Positions 5,084 to 27,742 of a DNA stretch of 64,000 bases are shown here, piece by piece. This DNA is from an uncultured bacterium (GTDB lineage Bacteria; Patescibacteriota; Patescibacteriia; CAIQCM01), in assembly GCA_963708045.1 (NCBI GenBank), contig OY970181.1, positions 323,740 through 387,739 of the forward strand, given 5' to 3'. The notes under the pieces were generated by a model. It was given only the letters and a program-made list of their open reading frames with translations, had not been told where the DNA came from and did not search any database. Position numbers and translations under genes: made by a program. Each line of letters begins with the position of its first letter. Position 1 is the first letter of the stretch.

Positions 5084-5133
5084 TAATATTCCGAAAGGAA
5101 TATTTGGCCGCAAGGCCTAGCTAGCGCGGGGCT

Positions 5134-9146: not shown

Positions 9147-9188
9147 AATTCTTCCCATAATGTCCGATCGGACATTATGGGAAGAATT
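9147..9188. promoter_or_regulatory. 42-bp perfect palindrome aattcttcccataatgtCCGATCGGacattatgggaagaatt at the 3' end of the regulator gene
   Basis: Seen directly; CGATCG core shared with palindromes at 9731 and 34037. Confidence 0.5.
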
Positions 9189-9720
9189 ATGTTGATGTTG
9201 TTATAAATAATAAAACCCACCTTTCAATTTTTAATAATTTAATGTATTGATTCATTTCTTTTGTGACATTAAAAGGCGTTGACCAAATACTTTTTTGAAT
9301 TTGTTTAAACCCCATCCTCTTAAGCGACCGTCTAAACATTGTTCTGGATTCTTTGGCCAACTCCGGTACATCAAAAGCGACGACAAGGTTTTTTCCTTTT
9401 GGCAGATATTTTCTCTTTTTAAAAATACAAATTTGCAGAGCGGCAATTTTGCCATGATCAGTTATTTTGACCAAGATATCATTATTTAATTTTTGTATTT
9501 CAATCCAGCCATTTTTATATATTTTACTAATTGGTTTAGGCAGGCCACCCGACTTATATTCAAGATATTGTCGCGCCGCACGCACGCTCATATTCCGCAT
9601 AAGAGAAGGGTAATTAAGAAAAAAGAATAGATCGTCAGTTTTTTGAAATATTTTAAGCAAAATCTCGGCTGTTACCGTTAGAGATTTTTTTGTTAAAAAT
9701 TTGATTCGTTTTTGCTCCAT
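9187..9720 (-). CDS. putative transcriptional regulator: N-terminal winged helix plus C-terminal Cas2-like/PaaX-middle-domain-like module
   Basis: C-terminal segment LVVAFDVPELAKESRTMFRRSLKRMGFKQIQKSIWSTP follows the Cas2/PaaX pattern (hydrophobic strand-D-hhhhh..R.R..L...GF...Q.SVW); N-terminal segment helix-turn-helix-like; start set at MEQKRIK (9720) since the longer ORF would run through the upstream palindrome. Confidence 0.45.
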   Translation of the reverse strand: MEQKRIKFLTKKSLTVTAEILLKIFQKTDDLFFFLNYPSLMRNMSVRAARQYLEYKSGGLPKPISKIYKNGWIEIQKLNNDILVKITDHGKIAALQICIFKKRKYLPKGKNLVVAFDVPELAKESRTMFRRSLKRMGFKQIQKSIWSTPFNVTKEMNQYIKLLKIERWVLLFITTST

Positions 9721-9730
9721 ATTATTTCTT

Positions 9731-9758
9731 CCTCTAATGCCCGATCGGGCTTTAGAGG
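9731..9758. promoter_or_regulatory. palindrome cctctaatgcCCGATCGGgctttagagg immediately upstream of the regulator start (candidate operator)
   Basis: Seen directly; 1 mismatch in 14-bp arms. Confidence 0.45.
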
Positions 9759-10241
9759 ATTTTGGTGTTGATAGCAAAATGTTTTTGCGATCCTTGATAT
9801 TTTTTAAATTAATTATTTTTTTATTTCGCGATTAACGACAATTTTTTTGATTACCATGATGACTGGTCGGCCGCTATGCAGCGTCAACCTCCATACTGGT
9901 AGATAGCAAAGAAAACGAATGATACAAATTACGCGTTGTTCACTGGTGCCATCCTTACTGATTCGTATATTTTGTGTTGCGTCGTTGTCTTAAGGCAATA
10001 AGAGTCGCATAAACGGCGGGGGCTTTCGCCCCCGCCGTAATGGCACTAATTTGTCGCGCTCCCGTTCTGGCCGTTTTGCGAGTGTTTAAAACCGCTGTCG
10101 TGTCCGTTTCGCCAGGAGCGGATGGATGTTTCAACAACGAATTTTCGGAGAGCTTCGGTGTGTTCGCCGGAAAGGTGAAAACGCGCGGCGAGCTCGCGGC
10201 ATTGGCCAGAAAGGAAGTCTAAATAGGTACTGGTTCTTTCT

Positions 10242-13168: not shown

Positions 13169-14320
13169 GAATCCCTAATTTCAGCCATATTTTGATTATT
13201 ACCTTGGCTCTTGACGGATATTTTTGAATAGAGTATTATATCCACATTATCCACAGAGCCCGACATACTATGAGCAGTAACTTAACTCCTAATATGAAAG
13301 CCAGCGGCTAGCCGGATATTTTGTGTCCCAATGCCCGCTGGTTTGCCAGCGGTTTTCTTTTTAGAAAAATCAGTTCGGAAACTTTTTAGAGGGTGGCCCC
13401 TTACAAAAGATTCCGAAAACCTACTTCCGCGGAGGGCGGAAAGAGCAAGTCCGAATTTAGGAACGTTGACAACCAAGCAAAGAGTAATAAATGTAAGTAC
13501 GAATTTTGGTTTCCAAAAGAAATCAAAATTTCAGTTTTGTTAACGTACAAAACTGGAGCATCTAAAAATAACGTCAACGAATTTTTGTGGTTCTCGTCGC
13601 AATGGAGCAATCCAAAGCGACTACCGTCCTAGTATCAGACTGGGACGGATCCAGAATTCTCTGGAAGACATTAAGGGCGTACGGTGGATGCCTCGGCATG
13701 GAATGCCTATGAAGGACGTAGCAGCCTGCGATAAGTCACGGCGAGGTGGCAAGCAACCTTTGACCCGTGAATCTCCGAATGAGGAAACTCAATCCGATGG
13801 AAGATCGGATTATCTTGTGCTGAATATATAGGTACAAGAAGGGAACTCGGCGAAGTGAAACATCTCAGTAGCCGAAGGAAAAGAAAGAAAGGTGCAATTT
13901 TTATATCGCCTTTCGCGATTCACATGTCTTCGGATGTGTGTTCCGCGATCTGCGGTAAAAAGTTGTGCTCATTCCCCTAGTAGCGGCGAGCGAACGGGGA
14001 AGAGCTTAAACTCCAAAGTGTTAAGCATGAAAACGGGTGATATGTCGAAAGATGTGTTATCGCGTATCGTGTGGCGGTTGTAGGGCCTCATATACTATGG
14101 AGTGTTCAGACGTAAGCGTTGTTCGCCTGCATCGAACAAGCAAGGGTTACAAACGATATCTTCCCAAGCAGAACGGCCTGGAACGGCCGGCCATAGACGG
14201 TGACAGCCCGGTACGCGAATGGGGTTATCCCTTTGCAGTTTATGTTCTAGAGTAACACGGGACTCGTGAAATCCTGTGTGAAGTCGGGAGGACTTTCTCC
14301 CAAAGCTAAATACATTCCAC

Positions 14321-14360
<40 letters not shown>

Positions 14361-14980
14361 CAGCCCGGAAGGGCGATGAAAAGTATCTGAAACCGTATGC
14401 TTACAAGGAGTGAGAGTGGATAGCAATATCCATGATCGCGTTCCTATTGAAGAATGAGCCAACGAGTTTGCTGTATGTGGCAAAGTTTAAGCCCGAGAGG
14501 GCGTAGACGTAGTGAAAGCGAGCGTGAAAGCGCGTTCTCACTTATCAACTTTTGCGGTTTACCGCAGAAGTTGTTGAGTGAGTGAGTCGCATACACAAGA
14601 CCCGAAACCGGGTGATCTAGCCATGGCCAGGATGAAGTTTTACGAAAGTAAAATGGAAGTCCGAACACATAAGCTGTGCAACACTTTGTGATGAGCTGTG
14701 GCTGGCGGTGAAATTCCAATCGAACTCGGTAATAGCTGGTTCTCCCCGAAATAGCTTGAGGGCTAGCGTCGGTTAATAACTAATTGGTGGTAGAGCACTG
14801 AATGGGGAACGGTGGAGTGATCCTACGTTTCCCAACCAACCTCCGAATGCCAGTTAGTGTTCCCGACAGTCAGCACGTGGGGGCTAAGCTCCACGGTGCG
14901 CAACGGAAACAGCCGTTGATCTCCAACTAAGGACCTTAAATCTATGCTAAGTGGAAAAGGATGTGGAACGACTCAAACAA

Positions 14981-15011
<31 letters not shown>

Positions 15012-15818
15012 TAAAGAAAGCGTAACAGCTCACTGGTCGAGTTATTCTGCGCCGAAAATATACCGGGGCTAAGCATAGTTCCGAAGTTGAGGGTTCTATA
15101 ATTAACTTTATAGAGCGGTAGGGGAGTGTTTGAAACGCATTGAAGGCGAAGACGTGAGTCCCGCTGGAGTGTTTCGAAGTACGAATGTTGGCATGAGTAG
15201 CAAAAATTGATGTGAGAACCATCAACGCCGTAAGAGGAAGGTTTCCTGGGCAACGCAAATCGGCTCAGGGTGAGGCGATCCTAAGACGAGGCCGAAAGGC
15301 GTAGTCGATGGAAAAGCAGGTTAATATTCCTGCCCCTCAATGGGTCACTACCCAGACTGACGCATCAAAAATACACGGGCGCTCTTTGGTTATGCGCGTG
15401 TCTTAATTGGGCAACTGATTAGGACGCAGTCTGAACCGAAAGGGGAAGACAATCCGTGAATGTATGGTGCCCAGAAAACGTCTGGAGACTATCCTATTGA
15501 GTCCGTACCGTAAACCGACACAGGTCCTCGGGCACAAGTGTGCCAAGGCGGACGAGAGAAACATCGTTCAGGAACTAGGCAAAAAAGTGGCCGTAACTTC
15601 GGGATAAGGCCTGCCCTATCGCAAGATAGGGTCGCAGCGAGCGTCTATGAACCGACTGTTTATCAAAAACACAGGTCCCTGCTAAGTCGCAAGACGATGT
15701 ATAGGGGCTGATGCCTGGCCAGTGTCAGAACGTTAAGGGGAGATGTTGACTCCGCAAGGAGAAGGCATTGAACCGAAGCGCTGATGAACGCCGGCGGTAA
15801 CTATAACCGTCCTAAGGT

Positions 15819-16086
15819 GGACAACACTGCCTTAGTGAGGTAACAGACCTCCTTCGAACTTTGACTAGCCATTGTCAAAGAGGTAGAAGAAAATTTGGCT
15901 ATTTCGGTGAACCTCCTTGTTTAAAAACAAGGACAATACCGAGGCAACCTGCAATGTGCAGAGAGTCCGTAGAGACTACACGCCAAAGTTTAACAATTGG
16001 TTAAATAAGATATAGTCCGAACTGCTTAGTAATAAGCAGAGCGTGATTGAACACCACGCCATTACAAAGTGTAATGTAACAACAAG
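15819..16086 (+). ncRNA. group I intron in 23S rRNA (insertion after CCTAAGGT, E. coli position about 1917)
   Basis: Exon sequence CCTAAGGT | intron | AGCGTAATCCCTTGTCGGGTGAGTTCCGACC matches the uninterrupted 23S; 5' exon ends in T and intron ends in G; conserved group I core elements R (cagagagtccgtagagactacacgcc) and S (aagatatagtccgaac) are present; 268 nt, no ORF. Confidence 0.75.
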
Positions 16087-16369
16087 AGCGTAATCCCTTG
16101 TCGGGTGAGTTCCGACCCGCACGAATGGCATAACGAGTTCATAACTGTCTTGACGATGTACTCGGCGAAATTGCAAGTGGCGTGAAGATGCGCTGTACTC
16201 GCAGCTGGACGAAAAGACCCCGTGAAGCTTTACTACTCCTTGCCATTGGATCATGTTTACTTATGTTCAGCGTAGGTGGGAGCCGCAAGGCGCCAATGAG
16301 ACACCACCCTTATGTTGATATGATTCTTACTGCAAACCGTGAATCCGGTTAGCGGAACAGTGGCTGGAA

Positions 16370-16400
<31 letters not shown>

Positions 16401-16621
16401 CAGTAACGGAGGCGTTTACAAAGGTAGGCTTGGCTCGGATGGAAATCGAGCTCAAAGTGCAAACGCAGAAGCCTGCTTGACTGCGAGGGTGATGGCCCGA
16501 GCAGAGACGAAAGTCGAAGTTAGTGATCCGACGGTCCCTCAGAGGAGGGCCGAAGCTCAACAGACAAAAGCTACTCCGGGGATAACAGGCTGATCTTGCC
16601 CAAGAGTCCATATCGACGGCA

Positions 16622-16681
<60 letters not shown>

Positions 16682-16738
16682 TGGCTGTTCGCCAATTAAA
16701 GCGGTACGTGAGCTGGGTTCAGAACGTCGTGAGACAGT

Positions 16739-17114
16739 GAGAATACCCGCGCTGTCTAAAAATCAGATCCAAGTCGCAATTCACAAGATGCGAAAGGATT
16801 CCGGTGTTGTCGCAAGATAACACTGGAGCTAAATGCTGGAAAATCTGGTCCGATCTTCTTTGGAGAGAAGATCAAAGAACTCGCACTAGTCGCGCAAGCG
16901 ACTGACAACGTGACGAGCGCAGACAATCAGCAGGAAAGGTTCTTCCATTACACGTAGAACAATCAACAATGGAAAGAAAATCCTCAGAGACTACACGCCT
17001 GATAGCTAGAAACCCCTAGTGAAAGATATAGTCCGAACTCTATGGCGACATAGAGAGTGCATCAGAAATGATGCGCCGGTTCAAAATTTATTTTTTGAAT
17101 TCGCAACATAATTG
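16739..17114 (+). ncRNA. group I intron in 23S rRNA (insertion after GAGACAGT, E. coli position about 2593, the I-CreI-type site)
   Basis: Exon GTCGTGAGACAGT | intron | TCGGTCTCCTATCC; intron ends in G; R (cagagactacacgcc) and S (aagatatagtccgaac) elements shared with the first intron; 376 nt, no ORF. Confidence 0.75.
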
Positions 17115-17550
17115 TCGGTCTCCTATCCACTGCGAGCGTTGAAACTTGAAGGGATGCTTCCCTAGTACGAGAGGACCGGGAAGCACGAACCTCCCGTGTA
17201 CGTGTTGTCCTACCAAGGGCATGGCACGGTAGCGGAGTTCGGAGGCGATAAGCGCTGAAAGCATCTAAGCACGAAGCGCCCCCTAAGATTAGGTTTCGTT
17301 ATAGACTCCTCGGAGACGACGAGGTTGATAGGCAGTAGGTGTAAGGCCCGCAAGGGTTTGAGCCGAGCTGTACTAATCGGTCGAGTTCTCCAGGGAACTC
17401 TGGTAAAAAATCAGAGAACCACAAAAACGCGCTGAAGTTATTTCAGTTGCCGTACTTTACATTTAGTGAATATCGCGTCTTTTTTGATACGGTATTTGCG
17501 AACCAACGAGCGTAGCAGCGTCTTCGTTCTGTTATAAAATAAGTTCAGAG

Positions 17551-17670
17551 TCTTGGTGACCCAACCGCACTGGTCACACCCGTTCCCATCTCGAACACGG
17601 CAGTTAAGCAGTGCAGGGCTGATGATACTTGGGGCCAACCCGTCCCTGGGAAAGTAGGCCGTTGCCAAGA
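17551..17670 (+). rRNA. rrf: 5S rRNA
   Basis: TTGGTGACC...GGTCACACCCGTTCCCATCTCGAACACGGCAGTTAAGC...GGGAAAGTAGG...GCCAAGA; flanking processing stem aagttcagagtc/gaccctgaactt. Confidence 0.85.
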
Positions 17671-17784
17671 CCCTGAACTTATTAAAAAAATAACAGAAAA
17701 GAGACGCTGAAACGCTCTGCAAAATACCACCTGAAAGGGTGTTTTTTTGTTTCTTAAAACCCCCTTTGGTAAAAAGTCGCGAAA

Positions 17785-17950
17785 AATCTTAGCCCTCCCT
17801 TTGGTAAAAGGGAGGGTGGGGAGAGTTCTGTTTTATTACGTTAAAAATATTTACGGCGAAACGAACTCCCCCTACCCCCTCTTTTGCAAAGAGTGGGCTA
17901 AGACTGGTTACAGATTTCATGTCTACCAATGTGCAAAGAGAGGGCGAGGA
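17785..17950. repeat. composite hairpin repeat element, A-B unit, empty copy (A: cttagccctccctttggtaaaagggagggtggggagagttctgttttattacgtta; B: cgaacgaactccccctaccccctc...gactggtta...tgtgcaaagag)
   Basis: Copies at 17992-18058 (A), 18470-18658 (B then A) and, inverted, 53745-53890 (A-B). Confidence 0.7.
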
Positions 17951-17991
17951 TAAAATTCTCAAATACAATCTTTTTTACAAAGATAGTGACA

Positions 17992-18658
17992 AAGCCGTGA
18001 AAAATCTTAGCCCTCCCTTTGGTAAAAGGGAGGGTAGGGAGAGTTCTGTAATTAACGTTACTTTTTATTAGAATTATTTAAAATCCAATTATGTACTTCG
18101 CTTAAAACTCCGTCTAGATTTTTCATTATATCGTTGTTCCAAAATCTTAAAACCGTAATATTATTCAGTTTTAAATAATTCGTTCTTTCTTGATCATAAT
18201 CAACGCGCTCGGCGTGTCCTCCGCCATCCGCTTCAATAGCAAGAGAGAGCGCCGGACAATAAAAATCAAGAATATATTTTCCGACGCTATATTGCCGAAA
18301 AAATTTATAACCAAAAAATCGTTTTGCTCTTAGCTGTTGCCATAGTTCCTTTTCTGCCACCGTTTGGCTTTCGCGCAATGACTGTCTTAATGACTTTAGG
18401 GCAAGATTATTTTTAAACATAACTACAAATTAATTTTATCAAAAAGTAGGGCTGAAATATACTTAACAGCGAACGAACTCCCCCTACCCCCTCCCCGATG
18501 GCCATCGGGGAGGGGGCAAAGACTGGTTGCATCTTACAAGACTATCATTGTGCAAAGAGTAGCTAATGCGAAACAAAAAATCTTAGCCCTCCCTTTGGTA
18601 AAAGGGAGGGTAGGGAGAGTTCTGTTTTATTACGTTAATTTAAGCCATTATTTAGCGT
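17992..18658. mobile_element. A-B repeat element copy carrying a DUF559 ORF as an internal insert (candidate small selfish element, of which the other copies look like MITE derivatives)
   Basis: A unit ends ...gagagttctgtaattaacgtta at 18058; the DUF559 gene occupies 18058-18420; the B unit resumes at cgaacgaactccccctacc (about 18470). In the empty copy the same two points are only about 20 nt apart. Confidence 0.5.
18058..18420 (-). CDS. DUF559 domain protein (Vsr-like restriction-endonuclease fold)
   Basis: 120 aa; characteristic DUF559 C-terminal region (CPALSLAIEADGGGHAE...ERTNYLKLNNITVLRFWNNDIMKNLDGVLSEV). Confidence 0.7.
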   Translation of the reverse strand: MFKNNLALKSLRQSLRESQTVAEKELWQQLRAKRFFGYKFFRQYSVGKYILDFYCPALSLAIEADGGGHAERVDYDQERTNYLKLNNITVLRFWNNDIMKNLDGVLSEVHNWILNNSNKK

Positions 18659-19005
18659 TAATTTTTAGCTAAAAATAAACAATTTATTTACCGTGCCCTC
18701 TTGACAAATTCGTTAAAGCGTGTTATAGTTGTTTGTTAATGAATGAAATAGGCGCGCCCTTTAAACGACAACTAGGGAGAGAGACTAGCACGAAATCACT
18801 AGACCTTGATTTCAGGATCCGCAAGGATCCCAAAGACGCGATTGTATTTGGTTTCTCAACTCCCAAATTCAGTCGCGTCTTTTTTATAGGGTCAGAAATC
18901 TGTTCGGTGCGGGTGGGGTGTTTATATGCCCCCTTGCCACGAACAGGTTCCTGCCCCCTCCGACTCAGTCGGTTGATTCCGGGCACGGTTACGAAAAGGA
19001 GTCTA

Positions 19006-19373
19006 CGATGAACCCACGTTCTTTTTTCGCTATGATCGCTTTCGCCCTTTCTCTTTCTTTTGCCACGGCCACTTCGGCTGATACGAGTAACTGCTCGACG
19101 GCCACTGCGGCCAAGGCAAAGAAGCCAACCAAGAAAGCGCCGAAGGCACCGATCACTGCTGGCGAAGTGACGTTCTACTTCGCAAGCCCCTCCGACCCTG
19201 TCACCATCACGGCGACGCGGGTGGAGTATCGCCCTGAGATGCTTCCCATTAAGGAAGCGACGGTTCTTCCGGAAACGGGCAATGACGCTCCAGTCGCCAG
19301 CGTCAAAAACAAGAAGCTGATTGACGACCTTCGTCCATCGCGCATCACGGTTGCAACAACGGTCGGCGAGTAG
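19006..19373 (+). CDS. small secreted protein
   Basis: Start at MNPRSFFAMIAFALSLSFATATSA (signal peptide); the longer 18918 start and the Arg-rich minus-strand ORF 18723-19379 are judged spurious. Confidence 0.5.
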
Positions 19374-19533
19374 CGCCACACAAGAGACGACTCAACGGAG
19401 TTGGTCTCGGGCGAGTTCGCAAGAACTCGCCTTATCATCCGAGAATATTTTCTCACATCTGCTAAAATATTTTCAGACGATAATCGGTCTTTTGGCAATT
19501 AGAAAACAGCGCAAAGCGCAGAACGGAGATTCG

Positions 19534-19737
19534 ATGGGAATTACAAGACGGATCGTGGATTTCTTGTTGCGGCCATTTATGGCCGACGAAGCAACGTCCA
19601 ACAAGTTGGACGTTCTGGATTCGATCGCTAGGGCGATCAAGGGTGGTCGCAACGGTGAGGCTGAAACCCTCATCAGAGAAAATATGGAAATCGCGACTGA
19701 TTTCCAAAAACAATGGCTCGCGAAAAGGGGAGGGTAA
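19534..19737 (+). CDS. hypothetical small protein
   Basis: MGITRRIVDF...; GGAG RBS 7 nt upstream; stop overlaps the next start (gggTAAccaATG). Confidence 0.4.
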   Translation: MGITRRIVDFLLRPFMADEATSNKLDVLDSIARAIKGGRNGEAETLIRENMEIATDFQKQWLAKRGG

Positions 19738-19740
19738 CCA

Positions 19741-19956
19741 ATGTTTCATCACGTAGTTTCGTCTGATCTAACGGCTCGGGTTCGCCAGGCGCACGGCGAT
19801 GTCCAAGAACGCATCGCTCGCGATGTAAACCGCGTTCTCCGCGGCGTGTCGTATATGACACGGTTTCTTATCTGGCAGATGATCCCGCGTCCGCTCTCGG
19901 CCAGTTCGGCTAGTCAAGCCTTTGCGCTTACTCGCCAGTTCGGCGGAGAAGCGTAG
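19741..19956 (+). CDS. hypothetical small protein
   Basis: 71 aa; GGGAGGG RBS; followed by a terminator hairpin. Confidence 0.4.
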   Translation: MFHHVVSSDLTARVRQAHGDVQERIARDVNRVLRGVSYMTRFLIWQMIPRPLSASSASQAFALTRQFGGEA

Positions 19957-19966
19957 ACCAGCACAA

Positions 19967-20030
19967 TCGGAGAACGGAACATAGCTCGCTAAAGCTAAGT
20001 TCCGTTCTCCGTCGCAATTTTTAATCTTTC
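19967..20030 (+). terminator. intrinsic terminator hairpin ggagaacggaac...gttccgttctcc followed by a T-run
   Basis: 12-bp perfect stem, then gcaattttt. Confidence 0.6.
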
Positions 20031-20093
20031 TTTAAGCTTGGAAGTTCCAAGCCGCGAAGGAAGGTTGGATTCTTGTGAAAAAAGGAGTGCACC

Positions 20094-20321
20094 ATGTTGC
20101 ACATCGCTCTTTGGACTGCTGTTGGTATCTTTGTTGTTTCGTTGATCGCCGGTCTCATTCTCTCGGAATTTTTCAGACGTTTGTGGAATGCGACGATAGG
20201 CGCGAGCGGAAAATACTACATCTCGTCACCGCGTGAACGTTTGAGCGATTGGTGGTTTGAACTTGATATCAAACGGCGGTTTCGGACTATCTTTCGTCGT
20301 TTAATGCGTGAGCGCGCATAA
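20094..20321 (+). CDS. small membrane protein
   Basis: 75 aa, one TM (LWTAVGIFVVSLIAGLIL), AGGAG RBS. Confidence 0.45.
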   Translation: MLHIALWTAVGIFVVSLIAGLILSEFFRRLWNATIGASGKYYISSPRERLSDWWFELDIKRRFRTIFRRLMRERA

Positions 20322-20466
20322 CGACCACCACGCCCAACCCCACGGCGAATACAAAATAGTGGGGCGCATTCTCAAGCAGTTGATTATCTCTCTCTTCAAC
20401 CGCTTGATCGATGCGAGTTAAATCACATCATTGGAAAAGACGAGTTTTGACGCAAGTCACCATTCG

Positions 20467-20553
20467 TCTTCCCAATAAAGTTCGTGAATACCTTTTTTCC
20501 CTCCCCCAAGAATGGGGGAGGGCGAGGGCTGTCACGCACTTCATTGGGAAGAA
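20467..20553 (+). promoter_or_regulatory. conserved upstream element copy 1 (cttcccaataaagttcgtgaata...ccctcccccaagaatgggggaggg...cacttcattgggaag)
   Basis: Outer inverted repeat ttcccaat/attgggaa enclosing a CCCTCCCCC/GGGGGAGGG hairpin; copy 2 at 22047-22151; a degenerate third copy at about 23695. Confidence 0.55.
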
Positions 20554-20601
20554 ACAGAAAGTTCGTTGACTTGAAAACGTTAGAAAGAAAGGTAAAGGAA
20601 G

Positions 20602-21984
20602 ATGAAGAACGCAATCGTTTCGTTGTTTGCTTTGTTCGTGTTGGTCGGATGCGAAACCAACAACTACTTCAATCTGCAACTGCCCGCAGCGTCAGCACCC
20701 AAAACAGAAGTGTCTGACGCTGGAGTATCTACTGCACCCGACGCGACTAGCGTCAGTGTTCTAGACACAATGGCACCGAACATCACGCCCGATGCCATCG
20801 TTGACACAGCAAGACCTGAGGTTGGCATCGATGTGTTGGTCGTCTCGGCCGATGCTGTTTCTGCTGAAACGGAAATCAGATCGCAAGATGCACTTCCAAC
20901 GGATACGACACCCGTCGTTTCCACTGATACGCAGCTTGCCGATACCGCACCAATGGCAATCTTCAAGATCGAATCGGTTTCCGTAAAGCGAGAAGATTCA
21001 TTTGGTGTTCTTGCAGAGGACGTTCGCAGTTTTGCAATCAAGTTTTCCAGTCCCGCCAAGAACATCTGGTTAACCATAAACGAGAAAACAACGGGAGCCA
21101 TCTTCCGTTGGGATCCAATCATGTGGGACGCCTCGTCAGTGCTTTCGGCCAATGTCGCTCCGGGTAACTGGACAGAGAAGCTGAAGACAAGCACTACCTA
21201 CATTTGGAGTGTAAAGGCTGATGCGGCAACGCCAGTTGCTGGCCCGCAGTCTGCGGTCGTGGTCGGCGAGTTTGTAACCGCCATTTGCTTTGCCGGACAA
21301 ACACGGTCTTGCTACGGAGGTTTGCCGCAGACAAGAAACATTGGTCAATGTCGTGATGGAACCAATGCCTGCGTCGTAACAAGCCAGGGAACGTATTGGA
21401 ACAACAATTGCATTGGCGAAACAACTCCGTATCCATTCGGTGACAGGTGCGGTGATGGTATTGACAATGACTGTGATGGTCTGATTGATAACTCAATTCA
21501 GATGGACGTTCCGTCGGGTCAAGATTCTATCTGGGCCAGAGCGTTGGTTAACGGGGAAGTCCTTCGGTTCAGCGTCAATTCCAAGAATGCATCGGCGACC
21601 CACTTCAGCTGGTTGAACGTTCAGGTTACAAGAAATGGACTCAATGTCGGTTACTACCGCCTTTGGGTAATGAATGCCAGTGGATCGTGGAATGACATCT
21701 CTTCTCAGGTAGACTTCTTTGATGCTTCAAGCGGGGGGTACAAGATAGGGATGTTTGATCTGGGTAGCAATCTTTTCACTGGGCCGAATGATTGGTTCAA
21801 TCTCGGCATTCATTGGAAAGATCTCGTTGGCCCGACTCTGCGCGGAGGAGAAGTAATCAACTATATGTTGGTTGCTAATGTAAATCCCGAGTTTGCAAAC
21901 AAGGGAGGTACAGTACGTCATTACGCCCCACACTCCGATAGTTCGTGTAGCACCGAGGGGGGCAAGACCATCTCGGTTGATTAG
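20602..21984 (+). CDS. secreted lipoprotein with Cys-rich Asp-rich putative metal-binding module
   Basis: Lipobox LFVLVGC; Cys cluster ...CRDGTNACV...CGDGIDNDCDGLIDN resembling the C-x-D-x-D-N-D-C-D-G motif of secreted bacterial proteins; remainder unknown. Confidence 0.5.
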   Translation: MKNAIVSLFALFVLVGCETNNYFNLQLPAASAPKTEVSDAGVSTAPDATSVSVLDTMAPNITPDAIVDTARPEVGIDVLVVSADAVSAETEIRSQDALPTDTTPVVSTDTQLADTAPMAIFKIESVSVKREDSFGVLAEDVRSFAIKFSSPAKNIWLTINEKTTGAIFRWDPIMWDASSVLSANVAPGNWTEKLKTSTTYIWSVKADAATPVAGPQSAVVVGEFVTAICFAGQTRSCYGGLPQTRNIGQCRDGTNACVVTSQGTYWNNNCIGETTPYPFGDRCGDGIDNDCDGLIDNSIQMDVPSGQDSIWARALVNGEVLRFSVNSKNASATHFSWLNVQVTRNGLNVGYYRLWVMNASGSWNDISSQVDFFDASSGGYKIGMFDLGSNLFTGPNDWFNLGIHWKDLVGPTLRGGEVINYMLVANVNPEFANKGGTVRHYAPHSDSSCSTEGGKTISVD

Positions 21985-22008
21985 TACTTTCGCAAAACAA
22001 AATAACAG

Positions 22009-22047
22009 GCGAGCGCTCTGATGGATCAAACCATCTCGCGCTCGCCT
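22009..22047 (+). terminator. terminator hairpin ggcgagcgc...gcgctcgcc after the lipoprotein gene
   Basis: 9-bp GC stem seen directly. Confidence 0.5.
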
Positions 22048-22151
22048 TCCCAATAAAGTTCATGAAACACCTTTTTTCCCTCCCCCAAGAATGGGGGAGG
22101 GTGCCCGAAAGGGTGGGAGAGGGTTGTCATGTACTTCATTGGGAAGAAAAG
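22047..22151 (+). promoter_or_regulatory. conserved upstream element copy 2
   Basis: About 85% identical to copy 1 with an extra internal hairpin (cccgaaagggtggg); ends 8 nt before the RBS of the next gene. Confidence 0.55.
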
Positions 22152-22159
22152 GAGAGTTC

Positions 22160-22403
22160 TATGAAAATTAAAAAACAAAAAACAAAGTGTCCGCGCAAAG
22201 TTTCGGATCCTGACTATTCGTGGAAACGCGATACAACGCTTTCGTTAAAACAGCGAATCAGCGAAGCGCGCCACGATGTTCATGATGCGATGGTCGCGAG
22301 CAATGAAGTTTTGCCCGACTCACTTGTATCCGCGTGGGCAACATTGAATCTTTTGCTCGGTCCGCTTTCACCAAGAAAGCGGCGTCAAGTCACAATTCAA
22401 TAA
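22160..22403 (+). CDS. hypothetical small basic protein
   Basis: MKIKKQKTKCPRK...; AAGGAGAG RBS; the longer 22062 start would translate the repeat element. Confidence 0.4.
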
Positions 22404-22435
22404 ATTCAGAACACCAAAAAAAGAAAGGCATTACG

Positions 22436-22834
22436 ATGAATATCCTCGGATTGATTCTTGTACTGGCTCTGCTTGCTGGGCTTGTTGACGTTTTCTTCAC
22501 CATTCAAAGTAACACGATCAAGGTGATGATTAACGGAACCGCGCCATTTGCAATCGTCTCGTTTTTGCGCGCGAAAAGTTTTAGCACCTATTTTTTCCGC
22601 TTACTCATGTCAGTGGAAAGCGATAGTCACCGACTGGAACTTGTAGGTCACAATCTGGCAAGTATTGTGATGAATAGATTGCCAACAGGGGATGGCCTGG
22701 TTGATACTCGTTGGCCGCTTGCCAAGATCACGATTACTGCGTCAAATCCCACACGTCTGCACGAGGCATGGGAGGCTGTTCAAGGAAATAGACGAATCTG
22801 GTCGCAGAACTGTCCGCTTTTCGTGGGGTTCTAG
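22436..22834 (+). CDS. hypothetical membrane protein
   Basis: MNILGLILVLALLAGLVDVFFT TM helix; ORF-track start at 22334 is probably an upstream extension. Confidence 0.4.
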   Translation: MNILGLILVLALLAGLVDVFFTIQSNTIKVMINGTAPFAIVSFLRAKSFSTYFFRLLMSVESDSHRLELVGHNLASIVMNRLPTGDGLVDTRWPLAKITITASNPTRLHEAWEAVQGNRRIWSQNCPLFVGF

Positions 22835-22864
22835 AAGTGGTCGCAAACTGAAGGAGGAAGACAA

Positions 22865-23554
22865 ATGAGTAACAAAAATCACGGATCAAATGTTTTTGCA
22901 AAGGTACTTGTCGTAATCGCGCTTGCCGTGGTGGGTGGTGCACTGAACATTATTGGTCTCAATTTTGAATTGATACAACATCAAGGATTAGAAGCGCTAA
23001 TTGAATACAAGACCATCATTTCGTCGCTCGGTGTACTTGTTAGTGTTGGCACACTCATCTACGCCGTATTCTGGATGGTCGTCTCGTATCGCAAGTGTGG
23101 TCGCGGGAATCGTCGGCTTGAGGAAGAGGCCAAAGCCGTTACTCACGACGTTGCCAAGGCTTTGGTTGATTCAGCTACCTTCGCGCCACTTCAGCGATTG
23201 GATGGAATAGCGGGTGCGCTTGATAGTTCGGTTAATGCACTGAGCCACATGGCTGAGGTGACCAGCTTGCTCGGGAACACGCTCTCGGCAGTGATGGTTT
23301 GTTGGGCAAAGGTCATCGCGTTTATGGGTGAAGGTTGCTTCTACCAAGCGGCGCTCGCGATCGCTGGCGATGAACGCGTGGCTTCACTGACTTCTCACCA
23401 AAATCTGATCCGAGCGATATACCAAGTCGCCTTGGCAGATAAGCGAGAGATGAGTGGTGGTGAAGTATATCTTATTAAAAACAGATTCCCATTCGTGCTC
23501 GGAGAATTACCACCAATGCCAATGCCGTCCGAATCGTCTGAAAAAAGGGCGTGA
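22865..23554 (+). CDS. hypothetical membrane protein
   Basis: 229 aa, two N-terminal TM helices, strong GGAGGAAG RBS. Confidence 0.45.
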   Translation: MSNKNHGSNVFAKVLVVIALAVVGGALNIIGLNFELIQHQGLEALIEYKTIISSLGVLVSVGTLIYAVFWMVVSYRKCGRGNRRLEEEAKAVTHDVAKALVDSATFAPLQRLDGIAGALDSSVNALSHMAEVTSLLGNTLSAVMVCWAKVIAFMGEGCFYQAALAIAGDERVASLTSHQNLIRAIYQVALADKREMSGGEVYLIKNRFPFVLGELPPMPMPSESSEKRA

Positions 23555-23834
23555 AGACGCAAGGTGGCAAGGTGGTCGCAAACAGGCAGAAGGGTTCGCC
23601 CTTCTGCCTGTTTTTCATATCGCGTCGCCCGTGGGGTTGACAAAATCTTCAATTTAGTGTAAGTTCTAATGTTCTTTAAAATCGCCATAAATGGCATATT
23701 TTTCCAATGAAGTTTATGAAACACCTGCCCCCTTATCGCTACCGCGATAAGCGGGTATAAGCGAGAAACCAGCGTGGTTTCGTAAATTTTTAGGGAAAGT
23801 ATCCCTATAGTCACCACAACCAAGGGGGAAAGTC

Positions 23835-24296
23835 ATGCGAAAGATATATGTCGTCCTAGCGGCGGCAGCAGTTGCGCTTGTGCTCGGTTTTTTTGCTTTC
23901 GTTTGCGTCTTCGTCTACCATCAGAACCAAAGTATGAAGGCGGAAATGTCGCAGATGAAAATAGAATTTCAGAAAAAGAAAGATACTCCGCTTCCAGAAC
24001 CGCAACCTGTTGTCGTTCAGCTTCCAAGCCAGCCAGTTCCCGCCCCAATGGTTGAGGTTTCGCCTCGACAAGAAAAGGTAGAACCAGAAGCAAGACCAGA
24101 ATTGGCAAAATCAACGGCAGCACACGTTAATGGTCGAGGTTTCGCCTCGACAAAAGAGCCGCGCGAGAATGGCGAAAAAGTCATTCTCATAGACACGCTC
24201 TTCTCTGCTTCGCAAGAAGCGACTGAGAAGATTGAAAACCGCCGCCGCGCTCCGAAAATGCGGCGACAAAAACCAAAAGCTTTTCCTTGTCATTAA
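23835..24296 (+). CDS. hypothetical membrane-anchored protein with internal short duplication
   Basis: N-terminal TM; repeated DNA gg(t/c)tgaggtttcgcctcgacaa(g/a)a; AAGGGGGAAAG RBS. Confidence 0.4.
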   Translation: MRKIYVVLAAAAVALVLGFFAFVCVFVYHQNQSMKAEMSQMKIEFQKKKDTPLPEPQPVVVQLPSQPVPAPMVEVSPRQEKVEPEARPELAKSTAAHVNGRGFASTKEPRENGEKVILIDTLFSASQEATEKIENRRRAPKMRRQKPKAFPCH

Positions 24297-24348
24297 GAAA
24301 GCGAAGAGCTCCGAGCTAAGGCCAATCTTGGTCGTTGGCGTTCCGGCA

Positions 24349-24507
24349 ATGAACGAAGACAATGTGTTTAAGTACGCGTCCTGCCTTCAGGCTCGTTTGC
24401 CAAAGCGCGGGAAAAAGCCGAGTCAAGTTGAAGTGCATTCGCTTGCACAGTTTGAACGGGGATACATTACCGTTTCAAGCGCAATGAACTTGGCTTTTCA
24501 GAACTAA
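24349..24507 (+). CDS. possible small ORF (uncertain)
   Basis: ORF 24232-24507 overlaps the previous gene; internal Met (MNEDNVFKY) chosen; weak. Confidence 0.2.
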   Translation: MNEDNVFKYASCLQARLPKRGKKPSQVEVHSLAQFERGYITVSSAMNLAFQN

Positions 24508-24517
24508 GCGGTCGCGC

Positions 24518-25240
24518 TTGGTTCATCGGGGGATGGAGTCGCTCCATCCCCGCAGTATTTGTCCGCTCTCGTGTCGGATGTCCGATATGAGGGCGCGCGA
24601 AAAATTGCGGAAAATTCTAGAAGAGACAGTCAACGACAAGGAGCATGCGATGCAAATAGTAAATCAGAGGCCAATGGATCTTCGTGGAAGGTGTTATCCT
24701 CAACTCGTTCACCCAAGCACGCGACCGGGAACAATAACGGAAAACGTTGTTGCCAATGAGGCAAGAGAACTGTTCACCAGTATTGTTTCGGGACAGGAAA
24801 TTCTGTACCTTGGCACCAAGAGTAGCGCACCAGAAGGTATTGTGATGGACAAGCATCCGCTTGGCGAGGATGCGTCGGTCGTGGTGGTTCGCGGTAAGAT
24901 TACCGGAATTCAAAAGATTTGGTTTTTCGCTGCGAGCGACTATTTTCTATTCTGTGCCCTTGTGGACTACTGCGCCGCAAACGGCTTTGGTGAGCCGGTT
25001 CCTCGTACTGTGCAATCCCGGTTGGAGGCTTTTCACCGATTGGGCAATTGTGCACATCCAATCGCAGGTCTTGAACCGAGTGATGGGTCGGTGGCGATTT
25101 ATCTATCTGATCTGCCAAAGGTAATGGCAATGGTTGCCATCGGCGAAAGAAACATCAATGTTCTACAGATCGTTGAAATGAGCGCTGCTGCGTTGAAGGT
25201 CAAGGTTGACGAAGCTCTTAAACGGGCAAAGTCCAAGTAG
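24518..25240 (+). CDS. hypothetical protein
   Basis: 240-aa ORF (alternative start MSDMRAREKL at 24578); no motif recognised. Confidence 0.4.
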   Translation: MVHRGMESLHPRSICPLSCRMSDMRAREKLRKILEETVNDKEHAMQIVNQRPMDLRGRCYPQLVHPSTRPGTITENVVANEARELFTSIVSGQEILYLGTKSSAPEGIVMDKHPLGEDASVVVVRGKITGIQKIWFFAASDYFLFCALVDYCAANGFGEPVPRTVQSRLEAFHRLGNCAHPIAGLEPSDGSVAIYLSDLPKVMAMVAIGERNINVLQIVEMSAAALKVKVDEALKRAKSK

Positions 25241-25394
25241 AGCATCTCACTCACGTTTTAAAAAGGGGAGTCGTCCGATGGCGGCTCCCTTTTCTCTTTG
25301 ACTAAACTAGTTTTCGGAGTTAAAGTGGCGAACCGATAAAAATCGGAAAATCGCCATCGTGGTACTTTCACATTGAAGAAAGAAGGAGGGCAGG

Positions 25395-25931
25395 ATGTAT
25401 ATGAATTTTTCTTCACAGGTTGTTTTGCGAGTTGCAACAAGGGAACAGCTTCGCCGACAAAAAACAATCAGTATGGACTTTGTTCTTCAGAGTCTCCTGG
25501 TTTCACTTGCGTCCGGATATCGGCTGGTTAGTTTTAATTGGCGCTCGGTCGTCATCAGTAACATCACGGAAACATACGAGTACCTCTTCACTTCCGGAAA
25601 CCAGTATCGCATCGTTGCCGCACTTTTTCTGGCAATGAAAGGCGCTGAGTTTGTTGAAGTTTTTCCTCTTGCTGGTACTGGTATCAACAAAACGATTGGC
25701 GAAACAGGGTGGAGCGAAAGGGTGCCGGTTGAGATTGGTGAACCGTCGCCAATGTATGTTTCTTGGCAGGATTTCGTTTGCTTCACGGCGCTTGTTGCTT
25801 CATGCTCTGTCAAAGCTTCGGCAGTGGCAAGTTTGAAAGAAAGCGTCGTCGGCATAACCGCCGCGCGAATTTCCGAATTACTGTGTCAAGCAATAGCGCA
25901 GAATCGCCGCGCAGTTTTGGTTTGTATGTAG
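25395..25931 (+). CDS. hypothetical protein
   Basis: 178 aa; GAAGGAGGG RBS. Confidence 0.4.
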   Translation: MYMNFSSQVVLRVATREQLRRQKTISMDFVLQSLLVSLASGYRLVSFNWRSVVISNITETYEYLFTSGNQYRIVAALFLAMKGAEFVEVFPLAGTGINKTIGETGWSERVPVEIGEPSPMYVSWQDFVCFTALVASCSVKASAVASLKESVVGITAARISELLCQAIAQNRRAVLVCM

Positions 25932-26016
25932 AAAAACGTCGCGCTTCAAATAAAGGCTGTTGTCCAAAAGACAATAGCCTTTTTCAATATGACAAATAAT
26001 GTTTTTTGATATATAA

Positions 26017-27280
26017 ATGGTGAATATGGAAACAATTATTGACCTGCACATCCACTCAAAATATTCGCGCGCCTGCTCTAAACTTTTGGAGCCGGCCAAT
26101 TTGGCGCTTTGGGCCGACAAAAAAGGCATTAATGTTTTAGGAACCGGCGACTTTACACATCCGTCGTGGCTAAAAGAACTTAAAGAAAATTTGACCGAAG
26201 ACCAGTCTGGACTGTTTAAATTAAAAAACGGAAATGCCAAAGCGCGTTTTATGCTTACGACCGAGATTTCGTGCATTTATAAACGCGGCGGCAAAACGCG
26301 GCGCGTGCATAATTGCATTTTTGCACCGTCGTTTGCGGCTGTTGATTTAATTATTGCCGAACTTACAAAACGTAATTGCAATTTAAAGTCGGACGGACGT
26401 CCGATTGTTGGTTTGGACTCAGAAGAGCTCTTAAAGATTGTTCTTGAAGCCTCGCCAAATTGTATGCTCGTGCCGGCGCACGCCTGGACGCCGTGGTTTG
26501 CGATTTTTGGTTCTATGTCCGGTTTTGATTCGCTTGAAGAATGTTTTGGTGAAAATAAAAAACATATTTATGCCATTGAAACTGGTCTTTCGTCTGACCC
26601 GCTAATGAATTGGCGGCTTTCAAAACTGGACGACGTCCTGCTTGTCTCAAATTCCGACGCTCACTCGCTTGGCAACCTTGGCCGCGAGGCAAATGTTTTT
26701 GATATCGCGCCGGAAAAATTATCTTATGCGGAAATAATTAGAATTCTTCGCGAAAAAGATCGCAAGAAATTTTTGTACACGATAGAATTTTATCCCGAAG
26801 AGGGGATGTATCATTTTGATGGCCATCGCGTGTGCAAAAAAAGAATGCATCCTGAAGAAACGGCAAAAAATAACGGCCTTTGTCCGGTTTGCAAAAAACC
26901 GGTGACGGTCGGCGTGTATTCGCGTGTCGCCAAGCTCGCCGATCGCGTTCGAGGGGACGCGGCCGCCCGGAATGGTGCCGTTTAAAAGCATTGTGCCGCT
27001 AGACGAAATTATCGCCGAAGCGCTAGACCGCGGCGCGGCGACCAAAGGCGTGCAAACAATTTACGAACAAATGGTTGGCAGGATGCCAGAATTTAAAATT
27101 TTACTTCACGCTCCCTATGACGAGATTATGTCGTTTGCACCGCCTGATGTTGTTAGCGGAATAAAACGCGTGCGCGAAGGAAAGTTGCAAATAGAACCCG
27201 GCTATGACGGCGAATACGGAACCGTAAAAATTTTTTCCGATTCCGAAAGAAAGAAAATGGAACAAGCGAAGTTGGTGTAA
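26017..27280 (+). pseudogene. EndoQ-like PHP-domain endonuclease (TIGR00375-like), interrupted by a +1 frameshift near 26940-26985
   Basis: N-terminal ORF (26017-26985): DLHIHSKYS PHP motif, LVPAHAWTPW, CPVCKK...GVYSRVAKLADR zinc finger. C-terminal ORF (26924-27280, other frame): ...FEGTRPPGMVPFKSIVPLDEII...PGYDGEYGTVKIF. The two overlap by 62 nt. Confidence 0.6.
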
Positions 27281-27452
27281 TAACTAATATCTAATGTCTA
27301 ATACCTAATCCGTTGGCGTCATCCCGAGGAGTGAAGCGACGAGGGAGCTCAACGTCTCTAAGCAAGCTCCGTGATTCCTCGTCAAGACAAAGCGACTAGA
27401 CGGACTCAAAATGACGGCGGATTAGACATTAGACATTAGATATTAGGTATTA
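27281..27452. repeat. low-complexity palindromic intergenic element with ctaat-repeat arms (aatatctaatgtctaatacctaatccg ... cggattagacattagacattagatattaggtatt)
   Basis: Family members at 39785-39895, 54541-54678 (3' arm missing), 37836-37912 (tagagat-type), 61543-61600 and 62668-62732 (aactttt-type). Confidence 0.65.
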
Positions 27453-27484
27453 AAAAATCCCCCGCGGGAGCGGAGGATTTTTAG

Positions 27485-27742
27485 CTATTCTTTGATATTC
27501 AACAACTTGGCTATCTTTGGTTTGTCAAAACCGATGACGATTTCTTTTTTTCCGTTAGTAAAAAATATTTCCGTAACTGGCACGCCCATCTGGCGGCTTT
27601 CTTTAATCATTTGCTCGGCGGCTTTTTCGTCTTTATCAACAAAAATATTTTTATATTTCACGTCCTTCTTTTCCAGCCAGTCTTTAAGCAGTTGGCAATA
27701 AGGACAAGTCACGGTGGAATAAATTGTGATGGATTTAATTTC
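27485..27742 (-). CDS. glutaredoxin/NrdH-like redoxin
   Basis: CPYC active site (ITIYSTVTCPYCQLLKDWL), about 85 aa from MEIKS; the longer ORF start overlaps the neighbouring gene. Confidence 0.7.
   Translation of the reverse strand, partial: EIKSITIYSTVTCPYCQLLKDWLEKKDVKYKNIFVDKDEKAAEQMIKESRQMGVPVTEIFFTNGKKEIVIGFDKPKIAKLLNIKE

Follow-up and report, generated by a model that had tools for sequence, protein, structure and literature searches.

What is a tight run of small, co-directional and unfamiliar genes doing downstream of the ribosomal RNA (rRNA) operon of a Patescibacteria (candidate phyla radiation, CPR)-type genome? The question is raised by a 64-kb stretch of such a genome, referred to here as the window, in which positions 18.7-25.9 kb (the block) had been taken in an initial annotation for horizontally acquired cargo or a degraded prophage. 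The evidence leads us to another answer: the block is probably the local version of a position-conserved, content-flexible cell-envelope island that carries locus-specific RNA leader hairpins and belongs to a small clade of Patescibacteria. The island is bounded on its left by the 23S-5S rRNA operon (rrn) and on its right by the gene for endonuclease Q (EndoQ). Its synteny, the orthology of its genes, the atypical composition shared by related loci, the covariation of its hairpin element, the restriction of that element to the locus and the conservation of its scaffolding above most coding DNA are all established.

The position of the locus, whose genes are numbered g1 to g12 and listed below, was examined in relatives retrieved in several ways. 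A scan for EndoQ in the GTDB species genomes returned 80 loci, the best of which (L002, 88% identity) carries an intact EndoQ gene preceded, over 5.8 kb, by different lipoprotein genes; tblastn of the block proteins against all 80 EndoQ loci gave no match, and pairwise comparison placed the domain of the block lipoprotein g5 in one L002 lipoprotein (E 2e-12). Two of the four phmmer matches of g11 sit on the Joint Genome Institute (JGI) contigs L082 and L083, both of which have an intact EndoQ gene at the contig end (EndoQ of the relatives is 86-88% identical) and a co-directional gene cluster before it. These two contigs carry g3-, g4-, g6-, g8-, g9/10- and g11-like genes in an overall similar order, together with one or two lipoproteins of 460-500 amino acids, of which one has the g5 domain. 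Scanning metagenomes for the arm pattern of the hairpin element yielded 48 matches, most of them by chance, and added L093, L098, L103, L112, L124 and L125. L098 and L112 overlap at 100% identity and therefore derive from one genome, in which the order reads 23S (with an intron), 5S, leader, g1-like gene, small open reading frames (ORFs), at least four lipoprotein genes, EndoQ, glutaredoxin and YkuD. Both flanks of the locus thus recur, with rrn on the left in L112 and EndoQ, glutaredoxin and YkuD on the right in L082, L083, L002 and L098. The 3' exon of the 23S gene is 91.6% identical between the window and L112, so that the genomes compared are not close. The rrn-EndoQ interval is an old, position-conserved locus.

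The content of this locus is another matter. Orthologues of eight of the eleven block genes (g1, g3, g4, g5 through one domain, g6, g8, g9/10 and g11) are found in related loci, at 26-59% identity; the L002 and L098/L112 versions hold elements and other lipoproteins, with no detectable homologues of g8-g11. The order of the g6 and lipoprotein genes is reversed between the window and L082/L083, and the lipoproteins of relatives have kept their signal peptides, their mature parts having diverged. The synteny comparison proposed with the initial annotation, which set conserved order and content with core-like GC content against an acquired origin, thus gave a divided result: the locus keeps its position and its regulatory scaffold, its content is flexible, and its GC is atypical in all relatives. 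A fixed position between conserved flanks, combined with divergent content of shared atypical composition, is what would be expected of a flexible surface-structure island of the replacement type.

Twelve co-directional + strand ORFs make up the block, and these represent eleven genes, g9 and g10 being one frameshifted gene. The ten or more small uncharacterised + strand genes of the initial annotation are real, with ORFs where it had placed them; seven of them start and end exactly as annotated in the source record (a 1,188,223-bp contig), and the starts used here for g7 and g11 (24650) are those of existing gene calls. The TAAccaATG junction that had been described as an overlap of stop and start codons is present at 19735-19743, where the genes lie close together without overlapping. 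All ORFs scored in their own frame (g2 was left out) show a preference for the annotated frame by codon-frame score, at values (0.01-0.11) below those of most housekeeping genes (mostly 0.10-0.29); two reference ORFs, at 5873 and 9187, score below this housekeeping range.

The genes, and the anchor on their right, are as follows.
19008-19373, + strand: g1, 121 amino acids, N-terminal hydrophobic signal, predicted to be secreted; the L112 orthologue (32% over 135 amino acids, E 2.5e-6) lies directly after the rRNA operon.
19534-19737, + strand: g2, a 67-amino-acid soluble ORF, ATG with GGAG upstream, no homologue; of the set, the one whose reality as a gene is least certain.
19741-19956, + strand: g3, a 71-amino-acid soluble protein, 56% identical to L082 44-250 (E 4e-22).
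20094-20321, + strand: g4, 75 amino acids, single-pass membrane protein with a conserved RRLWNAT motif, 44-46% identical to L082 575-760 and L083 469-771.
20602-21984, + strand: g5, a predicted lipoprotein of 460 amino acids, lipobox LVGC, Cys17, 9 Cys.
22161-22403, + strand: g6, an 80-amino-acid basic helical protein, 57-59% identical to L082 1077-1328 and L083 1082-1333.
22436-22834, + strand: g7, 132 amino acids, N-terminally anchored membrane protein; the same 132-amino-acid call is made on independent Logan contigs.
22865-23554, + strand: g8, 229 amino acids, two N-terminal transmembrane segments and a helical domain, 46-52% identical to L083 5729-6361 (E 2e-54).
23835-24507, + strand: g9/g10, one gene of about 225 codons encoding a transmembrane anchor, a Pro-rich linker and a conserved C-terminal domain of about 90 amino acids; its two ORF halves, both on the + strand, are g9 (23835-24296) and g10 (24232-24507).
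24650-25240, + strand: g11, a 196-amino-acid soluble alpha/beta protein, with orthologues at L082 7850 and 8418 and L083 8624 (26-31%).
25395-25931, + strand: g12, 178 amino acids, occupying the slot of the distant g11 paralogues of 187-188 amino acids in L082 and L083.
26017-27280, + strand: EndoQ, the right-hand conserved anchor of the locus.

Hydropathy and lipobox analyses predict g1 to be secreted, g5 to be a lipoprotein and g4, g7, g8 and g9 to be membrane proteins. The island would thus mostly encode exported or membrane-anchored proteins (g1, g5, g4, g7, g8, g9/10), accompanied by small, putatively cytoplasmic partners (g3, g6, g11, g12). That g9 and g10 are one split gene follows from the single orthologues of 226-227 amino acids in L082 and L083 that span both ORFs (27% identity over the g9 part and 44-46% over the g10 part); a surplus A in GAAAAC (about 24235-24238) shifts the frame by +1 and so splits the gene.

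In the predicted lipoprotein g5, the lipobox is followed by a linker rich in Ser, Thr, Ala and Asp, a repeat domain of some 110 residues that is all-beta (amino acids 110-230), a MopE-like motif rich in Cys and a beta domain at the C-terminus; the MopE-type CxDxDCD motif is matched below threshold only. The protein P0002 is a full-length homologue of g5 (56% identical), and the beta domain is also present in L001 (in three tandem copies), L082, L002, L098 and L093. The lipoproteins of the relatives, 150-730 amino acids long, carry the lipoboxes LLGC, VVGC, AAAC and LAAC; like g5, they are predicted lipoproteins by virtue of a signal peptide ending in [LVI][ASTVI][GAS]C. The g11 family is very small, with 4 matches among 1.84 billion representatives in an exhaustive phmmer search, and is represented in each locus by one or two copies and one distant paralogue. 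Profile comparison with hhalign relates the g11 family to the 187-188-residue family at E 8.6e-6; the values for g12 against either family (E 0.02-0.2) do not establish homology of g12. A paralogy between g11 and g12 themselves was detectable neither by BLAST nor by hhalign.

The composition of the block is the property that most readily suggests foreign DNA. Its GC content had been reported to exceed that of the flanking DNA, which is true of a small difference (0.493 against a window mean of 0.461): the block ranks first among all 7-kb segments of the window, yet stands about 3 points above the mean, and the best segment that does not overlap it reaches 0.485. The oligonucleotide signature, which is the most deviant in the window, is more telling than GC. 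In tetranucleotides the block correlates with the rest of the window at 0.645, compared to 0.82-0.97 elsewhere; its Karlin dinucleotide distance (delta*) of 160-183 compares to 24-99 across most of the window, the block being poorer in CpG, GpC and TpA and richer in GpA, ApG and CpA. The orthologous loci in L082, L083, L112, L098 and L002 lie at a delta* of 39-100 from the block and of 120-172 from the rest of the window, and the EndoQ genes of the relatives, unlike their loci, match the signature of the rest of the window. Relative to the adjacent EndoQ gene, the locus has the same GC in L002 and 2-6 points more in the other relatives. Since the deviant composition is common to orthologous loci, it belongs to the locus, is long-standing and is not evidence of recent import.

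A second patch of deviant signature occupies window positions 4500-7500 (delta* 161-166, with low GC at third codon positions), directly after a LOOT RNA (5003-5118). Its ORFs 5134-5919 and 5873-7573 give weak matches to Lsa25, a surface adhesin, and to CglD, a gliding lipoprotein.

The island is further set apart by a repeated hairpin. A structured element had been reported upstream of two block genes; both copies were confirmed, at 20467-20552 and 22045-22147, and a third was found at 23699-23800.
20467-20552, + strand: e1, with 5' arm TTCCCAATAAAGTTCGTGAA, a GC-rich hairpin core and 3' arm TCACGCACTTCATTGGGAA; folding free energy -57 kcal/mol, 78.6 bits; a conserved leader and ribosome-binding site follow, up to the g5 ATG.
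22045-22147, + strand: e2, directly after the hairpin at the 3' end of g5 (22008-22045) and 14 nt before the g6 ATG; -58 kcal/mol, 88.5 bits.
23699-23800, + strand: e3, situated in the 5' untranslated region of g9/10 and with a 3' arm of type B (TTTCGTAAATTTTTAGGGAAA); 78.8 bits.

The element is a hairpin of 85-155 nt with conserved 20-nt arms and a variable core. In all three window copies, the 5' arm TTYCCAATRAAGTTYRTGAA and a 3' arm complementary to it enclose an inner hairpin that varies, and within the window the arms occur in the block only. There are at least six copies in L082, at least seven in L083 and at least three in L098/L112, and these lie at orthologous positions, upstream of lipoprotein genes, of the g6-like gene, of a unit comprising a 47-amino-acid ORF and a g8-like gene, and of the g9/10-like gene (orthologous e3 copies at L082 6890-6992 and L083 7118-7219). 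In a 19-copy alignment, 86.7% of the cells of the arm-arm helix are paired, compared to 34-53% in slid controls; 9 of the 19 pairs show changes on both sides, compared to 1-3 in slid controls, and the observed covariation score was reached by none of 500 shuffles. Folding energies range across copies from -25 to -71 kcal/mol. A covariance model of the element (R1) returned from the 64-kb window the three block copies alone (79-88 bits, the next match scoring 25 bits) and no copy from the roughly 1 Mb of DNA that makes up 79 EndoQ loci from other Patescibacteria. All of the approximately 35 copies are co-directional with the genes, and those of the relatives all lie inside the orthologous locus. 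The sense strand scores some 20-50 bits above the antisense strand and the helix includes many G-U pairs, an asymmetry that favours a role at the RNA level. Permissive cmscan searches of 17300-27500 against Rfam returned nothing at the positions of the elements or of the g1 leader. With its conserved helix and compensatory changes, the element is a candidate structured RNA motif, and in the DNA searched it is confined to the rrn-EndoQ locus of a small Patescibacteria clade.

The inner hairpin of e1 and e2, CCCTCCCCC...GGGGGAGGG, is a member of a dispersed family of GC-rich palindromes with 10 copies in the window. These palindromes, of the form CCCTCCC...GGGAGGG (10 copies compared to 0 expected by chance), often follow CCCGGCCTTCGGCC and lie at 13139, 17793, 18011, 18489, 18587, 20499, 22078, 53774, 53860 and 60974; the last copy (60949-60997) lies, apparently in frame, inside a GT4 glycosyltransferase ORF (60394-61533, minus strand).

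Three further non-coding features belong to the scaffold of the locus.
18701-18888, + strand: a candidate leader of g1-g3, in which a near-consensus promoter (TTGACA-17-TATAGT, 18701-18729) precedes some 150 nt of structured RNA with a strong intrinsic terminator at its end.
20338-20466, + strand: the non-coding spacer between g4 and e1, 86% identical at the DNA level over 145 nt to L082 776-922 and L083 787-931.
23637-23665, + strand: a putative promoter-like site upstream of e3 (TTGACA, 17 nt, TAAGTT), conserved but with a weak -10 box.

The promoter of the leader scores 11/12 in a promoter scan, and its terminator (stem 18832-18882 and T-run, to 18888) is located about 120 nt before g1. The leader is 72% identical over 190 nt to its counterpart in L112, which occupies the same place after 5S and before the g1-like gene, and its GCAA-capped hairpin is changed on both sides between the two (GGATCC/GGATCC compared to GGAATTC/GAATTCC in L112). 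It is a candidate attenuator- or riboswitch-like leader of g1-g3, or a small RNA. The g4-e1 spacer is conserved above the coding DNA of EndoQ (78-80%) and above any coding DNA of the locus, and may hold a promoter or a further RNA element. More generally, the block DNA that can be aligned with L082, L083, L002 and L098 is mostly intergenic (19976-20110, 81-84%; 20338-20482, 86%; 20469-20588, 80-81%; 21983-22067, 76-84%; 23576-23808, 69-78%; 24528-24570, 86%), the coding DNA being mostly unalignable with the exceptions of g8 (68%) and EndoQ (77-80%). The regulatory logic of its own that the initial annotation attributed to the block is thus borne out by a locus-specific structured element with covariation and by a conserved scaffolding of promoters and terminators. 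Read from sequence, and in part conjectural, the transcription units would be as follows.
Unit 1: promoter 18701-18729, leader, g1-g2-g3, then a terminator-like hairpin at 19969-20010.
Second unit: g4, spacer, e1, g5, then the hairpin at 22008-22045.
Third unit: e2, g6, g7, g8, then an intrinsic terminator at 23579-23613.
Fourth unit: promoter-like site 23637-23665, e3, g9/10, g11, then g12.

At the lipoprotein genes, conservation extends as one unit from the spacer over hairpin, leader and ribosome-binding site as far as the signal peptide (alignment of window 20365-20667 to L098 138-456). The left flank of e1 matches that of the element at L082 907 and of an L083 element, both of which precede g6, and the right half of e1 with its leader matches the leaders of the lipoprotein gene at L082 4835 and of the L002/L098 lipoprotein genes. 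Gene order is mosaic at the elements, as recombination at conserved scaffolds would give. We propose that the locus comprises several short transcription units, most of which would open with the same locus-specific long-hairpin RNA element. The hairpins may act as RNA, either by forming a structure for processing or stabilization or by binding a locus-specific factor, and might thereby bring about coordinated expression. The repeated conserved scaffolds may double as junctions for homologous recombination, through which coding modules would be swapped, duplicated and reordered, and the products may form the exposed cell surface, their diversification being driven by interaction with host cells or phages. 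In a bolder version of this proposal, which we consider a long shot, hairpin, leader and signal peptide together would be the working part of a dedicated system for the diversification and expression of surface lipoproteins in episymbiotic CPR bacteria, the hairpin being bound by a locus-encoded factor (for instance the basic g6) that both controls expression and defines the junctions of cassette exchange. Such a system, if real, would be the counterpart, for surface proteins, of cassette systems of the integron or vsp type, but one lacking any known recombinase.

Searches for function left the products without a name. Profile searches and structure prediction had been proposed for each ORF; profile searches, and structure prediction for g5 and g11, assigned neither family nor fold, and the claim that no product matches a known family was upheld by the profile libraries and PDB. 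The block proteins scanned gave no significant match in Pfam, NCBIfam, PHROGs or PADLOC; for 10 ORFs (an extended g11 ORF included, g10 and g12 lying outside the scan) nothing in PHROGs fell below E 0.02, the weak matches being transmembrane-segment noise, and the single PADLOC match (g8, E 0.015, 12 bits) was below threshold. Sequence profile searches of PDB with five locus families returned no match. The AlphaFold2 model of g11 (predicted local distance difference test [pLDDT] 62.5, predicted template modelling score 0.68) found no Foldseek fold match in PDB or BFVD, and that of g5 was not usable (pLDDT 38). Ten locus proteins of relatives gave in Pfam the MopE motif and sub-threshold Ig-like hints, and nothing more; a metagenome scan with the g5 alignment returned no match. 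All proteins tested, among them YkuD and DUF559 from the flanks, form singleton clusters at 90% identity and thus have no close relative in the databases, and calls of 'no homologue' should be read accordingly. Likewise, a word-indexed search with g8 returned g8 alone despite the 46-52% identical orthologue in L083, which makes orphan calls from this type of search weak.

Could these products nevertheless be parts of one machine? An undescribed envelope-spanning apparatus for attachment, export or signalling, built from g3, g4, g6, g8, g9/10 and the g11 family and with the lipoproteins as its variable outer parts or cargo, would be in keeping with the mixture of cytoplasmic, membrane and exported products that recurs in similar order in the window, L082 and L083. 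The architecture of g9/10 resembles that of TonB (membrane anchor, Pro-rich linker, C-terminal domain of about 90 amino acids), and the g11 family, counting the distant paralogue, has two to three copies per locus. However, L002 and L098/L112 keep elements and lipoproteins without detectable g8, g9/10 and g11, indicating that the lipoproteins do not need these partners and counting against an obligatory multi-protein machine. In addition, neither an ATPase nor a secretin nor any other known machine component was recognized, there was no Pfam, PDB or fold match, and g9/10 is frameshifted in the window. We regard such an apparatus as unlikely.

Another explanation concerns the elements, which might be miniature inverted-repeat transposable elements (MITEs) or selfish repeats of the repetitive extragenic palindromic (REP) or Correia type, their arms preserved for recognition by a transposase and their presence devoid of regulatory meaning. 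Terminal inverted repeats of 20 nt around a variable core, a length of about 60-155 nt and the multiplicity of copies would all suit mobile repeats, as would the core of two window copies, itself a dispersed GC-rich palindrome. Such repeats would not be expected to be limited to one locus of a 64-kb window and to the orthologous locus of relatives, nor to keep orthologous positions where neighbouring proteins are only 27-59% identical. The elements are, moreover, always co-directional with genes and their G-U pairs point to the sense strand; no sign of a target-site duplication was seen, and no transposase was found in the ORFs scanned. In our view this makes the selfish-repeat explanation distinctly improbable.

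The possibility that the block is recently acquired foreign DNA, whether a degraded prophage, an integrative element or a defence island, is the one that the initial annotation had in large part favoured. It draws on the top ranking of the block in GC and in tetranucleotide and dinucleotide deviation, on its orphan or near-orphan genes, and on the adjoining DUF559 gene with its repeats and the two frameshifts nearby. Acquired cargo is contradicted by the presence of the same rrn-EndoQ locus, with orthologues and the same deviant dinucleotide signature, in L082, L083, L112/L098 and L002, that is to say at the same position in relatives with about 8% difference in 23S. A prophage origin finds no support in PHROGs, IMG/VR (no relatives of g5, g6, g8, g11 and g12, and no copies of the hairpin element) or INPHARED (no blastn match to the block); no integrase, transposase or recombinase domain was detected among the block ORFs and immediate flanking ORFs scanned, and neither flanking direct repeats nor a tRNA attachment site were seen. 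A defence function, also suggested at the outset, is met by PADLOC with no match above threshold. As to DUF559, the Vsr-like endonuclease gene and the repeats that had been noted before the block are there (gene at 18058-18420, minus strand, E 1e-34, flanked on either side by composite repeat units), but this unit has no counterpart in the spacer between 5S and leader of L112 and therefore looks like a separate, window-specific insertion (window 17700-18700); 5S and promoter are about 1030 nt apart in the window and about 340 nt apart in L112. Altogether, recent acquisition strikes us as very improbable.

Scarcely credible, finally, is the notion that the elements bring about phase or cassette variation of the surface proteins, either as promoter switches that invert (invertons) or as attC sites of the integron type: inverted repeats of shared consensus do precede surface-protein genes and cassette-like units are reordered between genomes, but all of the approximately 35 copies have one orientation (and the whole element is near-palindromic, so that inversion would change little), the arms TTCCCAATAAAGTTCGTGAA / TCATGTACTTCATTGGGAA lack the R''/R' consensus of attC (RYYYAAC, GTTRRRY), and neither an invertase nor an integron integrase was found in the ORFs scanned. 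The MITE, inverton and attC readings all fit worse than a transcribed cis-element.

A number of points weigh against an envelope island with RNA leader hairpins, the reading that we prefer. The relatives consist of metagenomic contigs only and amount to about three independent genomes, and g2, g7 and g12 have no detectable homologue. The glutaredoxin and YkuD proteins next to the locus are only 63% and 59% identical to those of L098, so that the excess divergence of the locus, although real, is less extreme than the 88% identity of EndoQ implies. Ancient or recurrent import from an unknown gene pool could be the source of the odd composition, and covariation between arms is also expected of the terminal inverted repeats of DNA elements. 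A role at the surface or in host interaction is read from predicted localisation and analogy; a supporting analogy may be drawn with the other composition outlier of the window (4.5-7.5 kb), which likewise appears to encode adhesin-like proteins. Finally, the two frameshifts within 2.7 kb (g9/10 and EndoQ) may indicate either partial decay or assembly error. The frameshift in EndoQ, mentioned in the initial annotation, results from one extra nucleotide near 26946 by comparison with three intact orthologues, and the identity of the gene is supported by the match of the intact L082 orthologue to Pyrococcus EndoQ (PDB 5ZB8, E 6e-51).

Some features of the flanks and of the remaining window deserve mention in their own right. 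The 23S gene (13661-17395) contains two group I introns (15809-16039 and 16729-17055) and is followed by 5S (17552-17670); the relative L112 (11379-13310) has an intron with a LAGLIDADG-type ORF. Directly after EndoQ lies a 35-nt AT-rich inverted repeat with TAATA/CTAAT-like units (arms 27278-27312 and 27418-27452, 91% complementary). The ORF 9187-9777 (minus strand, 196 amino acids) shows a weak, sub-threshold similarity to Cas2 (22.9 bits compared to a cutoff of 24.5) as well as to the PaaX regulator, and a 38-nt hairpin (9149-9186) is found just downstream of it.

Parts of this organization are familiar from other bacteria. Clusters of variable lipoproteins are known in the Vlp and Vsp families of Mycoplasma; no tandem-repeat or homopolymer device for phase variation was seen in the locus. 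JUMPstart/ops is a short conserved cis-element found in the 5' leaders of surface-polysaccharide operons and placing them under common control, ops (operon polarity suppressor) being a short single-stranded DNA signal that recruits RfaH. The present element similarly is short, conserved and located in the 5' leaders of several putative envelope units, but it is a long hairpin and no RfaH-like partner was identified. The Correia elements or Neisseria miniature insertion sequences (NEMIS) and the enterobacterial REP sequences or bacterial interspersed mosaic elements (BIMEs) are inverted repeats of about 100-150 nt that are co-transcribed, form long RNA hairpins and can affect the processing or stability of mRNA; they are spread genome-wide in both orientations and are mobile now or were formerly. 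Unlike these, the element is found at one locus, in one orientation and at orthologous sites across divergent genomes.

Hypervariable region 2 (HVR2) of SAR11 is flanked by the 23S and 5S genes, carries cell-surface functions and has an anomalous composition (PMC2217521), and the conserved genes flanking such replacement-type islands have been proposed to serve as recombination anchors (PMC2217521). The locus resembles HVR2 (PMC2217521) and O-antigen loci in its fixed position between conserved anchors and its predicted envelope content, and shares with HVR2 an rRNA flank, an anomalous composition, fast divergence and rearrangement, and the lack of a clear integron or phage signature. It differs in being small (about 7-13 kb), in encoding lipoproteins and small membrane proteins instead of polysaccharide-synthesis enzymes, in being GC-richer rather than AT-richer than the genome and in its repeated, locus-specific structured element; replacement by recombination is, in the present case, inferred. 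With the lpl cluster of the Staphylococcus aureus island nuSa-alpha the locus has in common co-directional lipoprotein paralogues with conserved non-coding or 5' segments and divergent mature parts (PMC2568036), the conserved segments being plausible sites at which homologous recombination shuffles modules. There is no sequence homology between the two, however, and the recombination site of lpl is a central conserved coding region (PMC2568036); the conserved unit of the present locus consists, unlike that of lpl, of spacer, hairpin, leader and signal peptide, and genes other than lipoprotein genes are interleaved. The repeated, locus-restricted hairpin leader is the feature that distinguishes the locus from both HVR2 and lpl.

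Several consequences follow. The element offers a candidate new structured RNA motif with covariation support, to which a second conserved leader or small RNA before g1 may be added, and its arm sequence TTCCCAATAAAGTTCRTGAA...TTCATTGGGAA provides a simple nucleotide marker with which to find the locus in metagenomes. The locus also illustrates that atypical composition and orphan genes in a CPR genome need not imply recent horizontal transfer. CPR bacteria are thought to live attached to host cells, and their genomes are dominated by small proteins without annotation. To our knowledge, next to nothing has been established about the surface molecules that mediate this attachment. The locus described here singles out a compact, comparably organised set of predicted exported proteins that is diversifying fast at a fixed chromosomal site.

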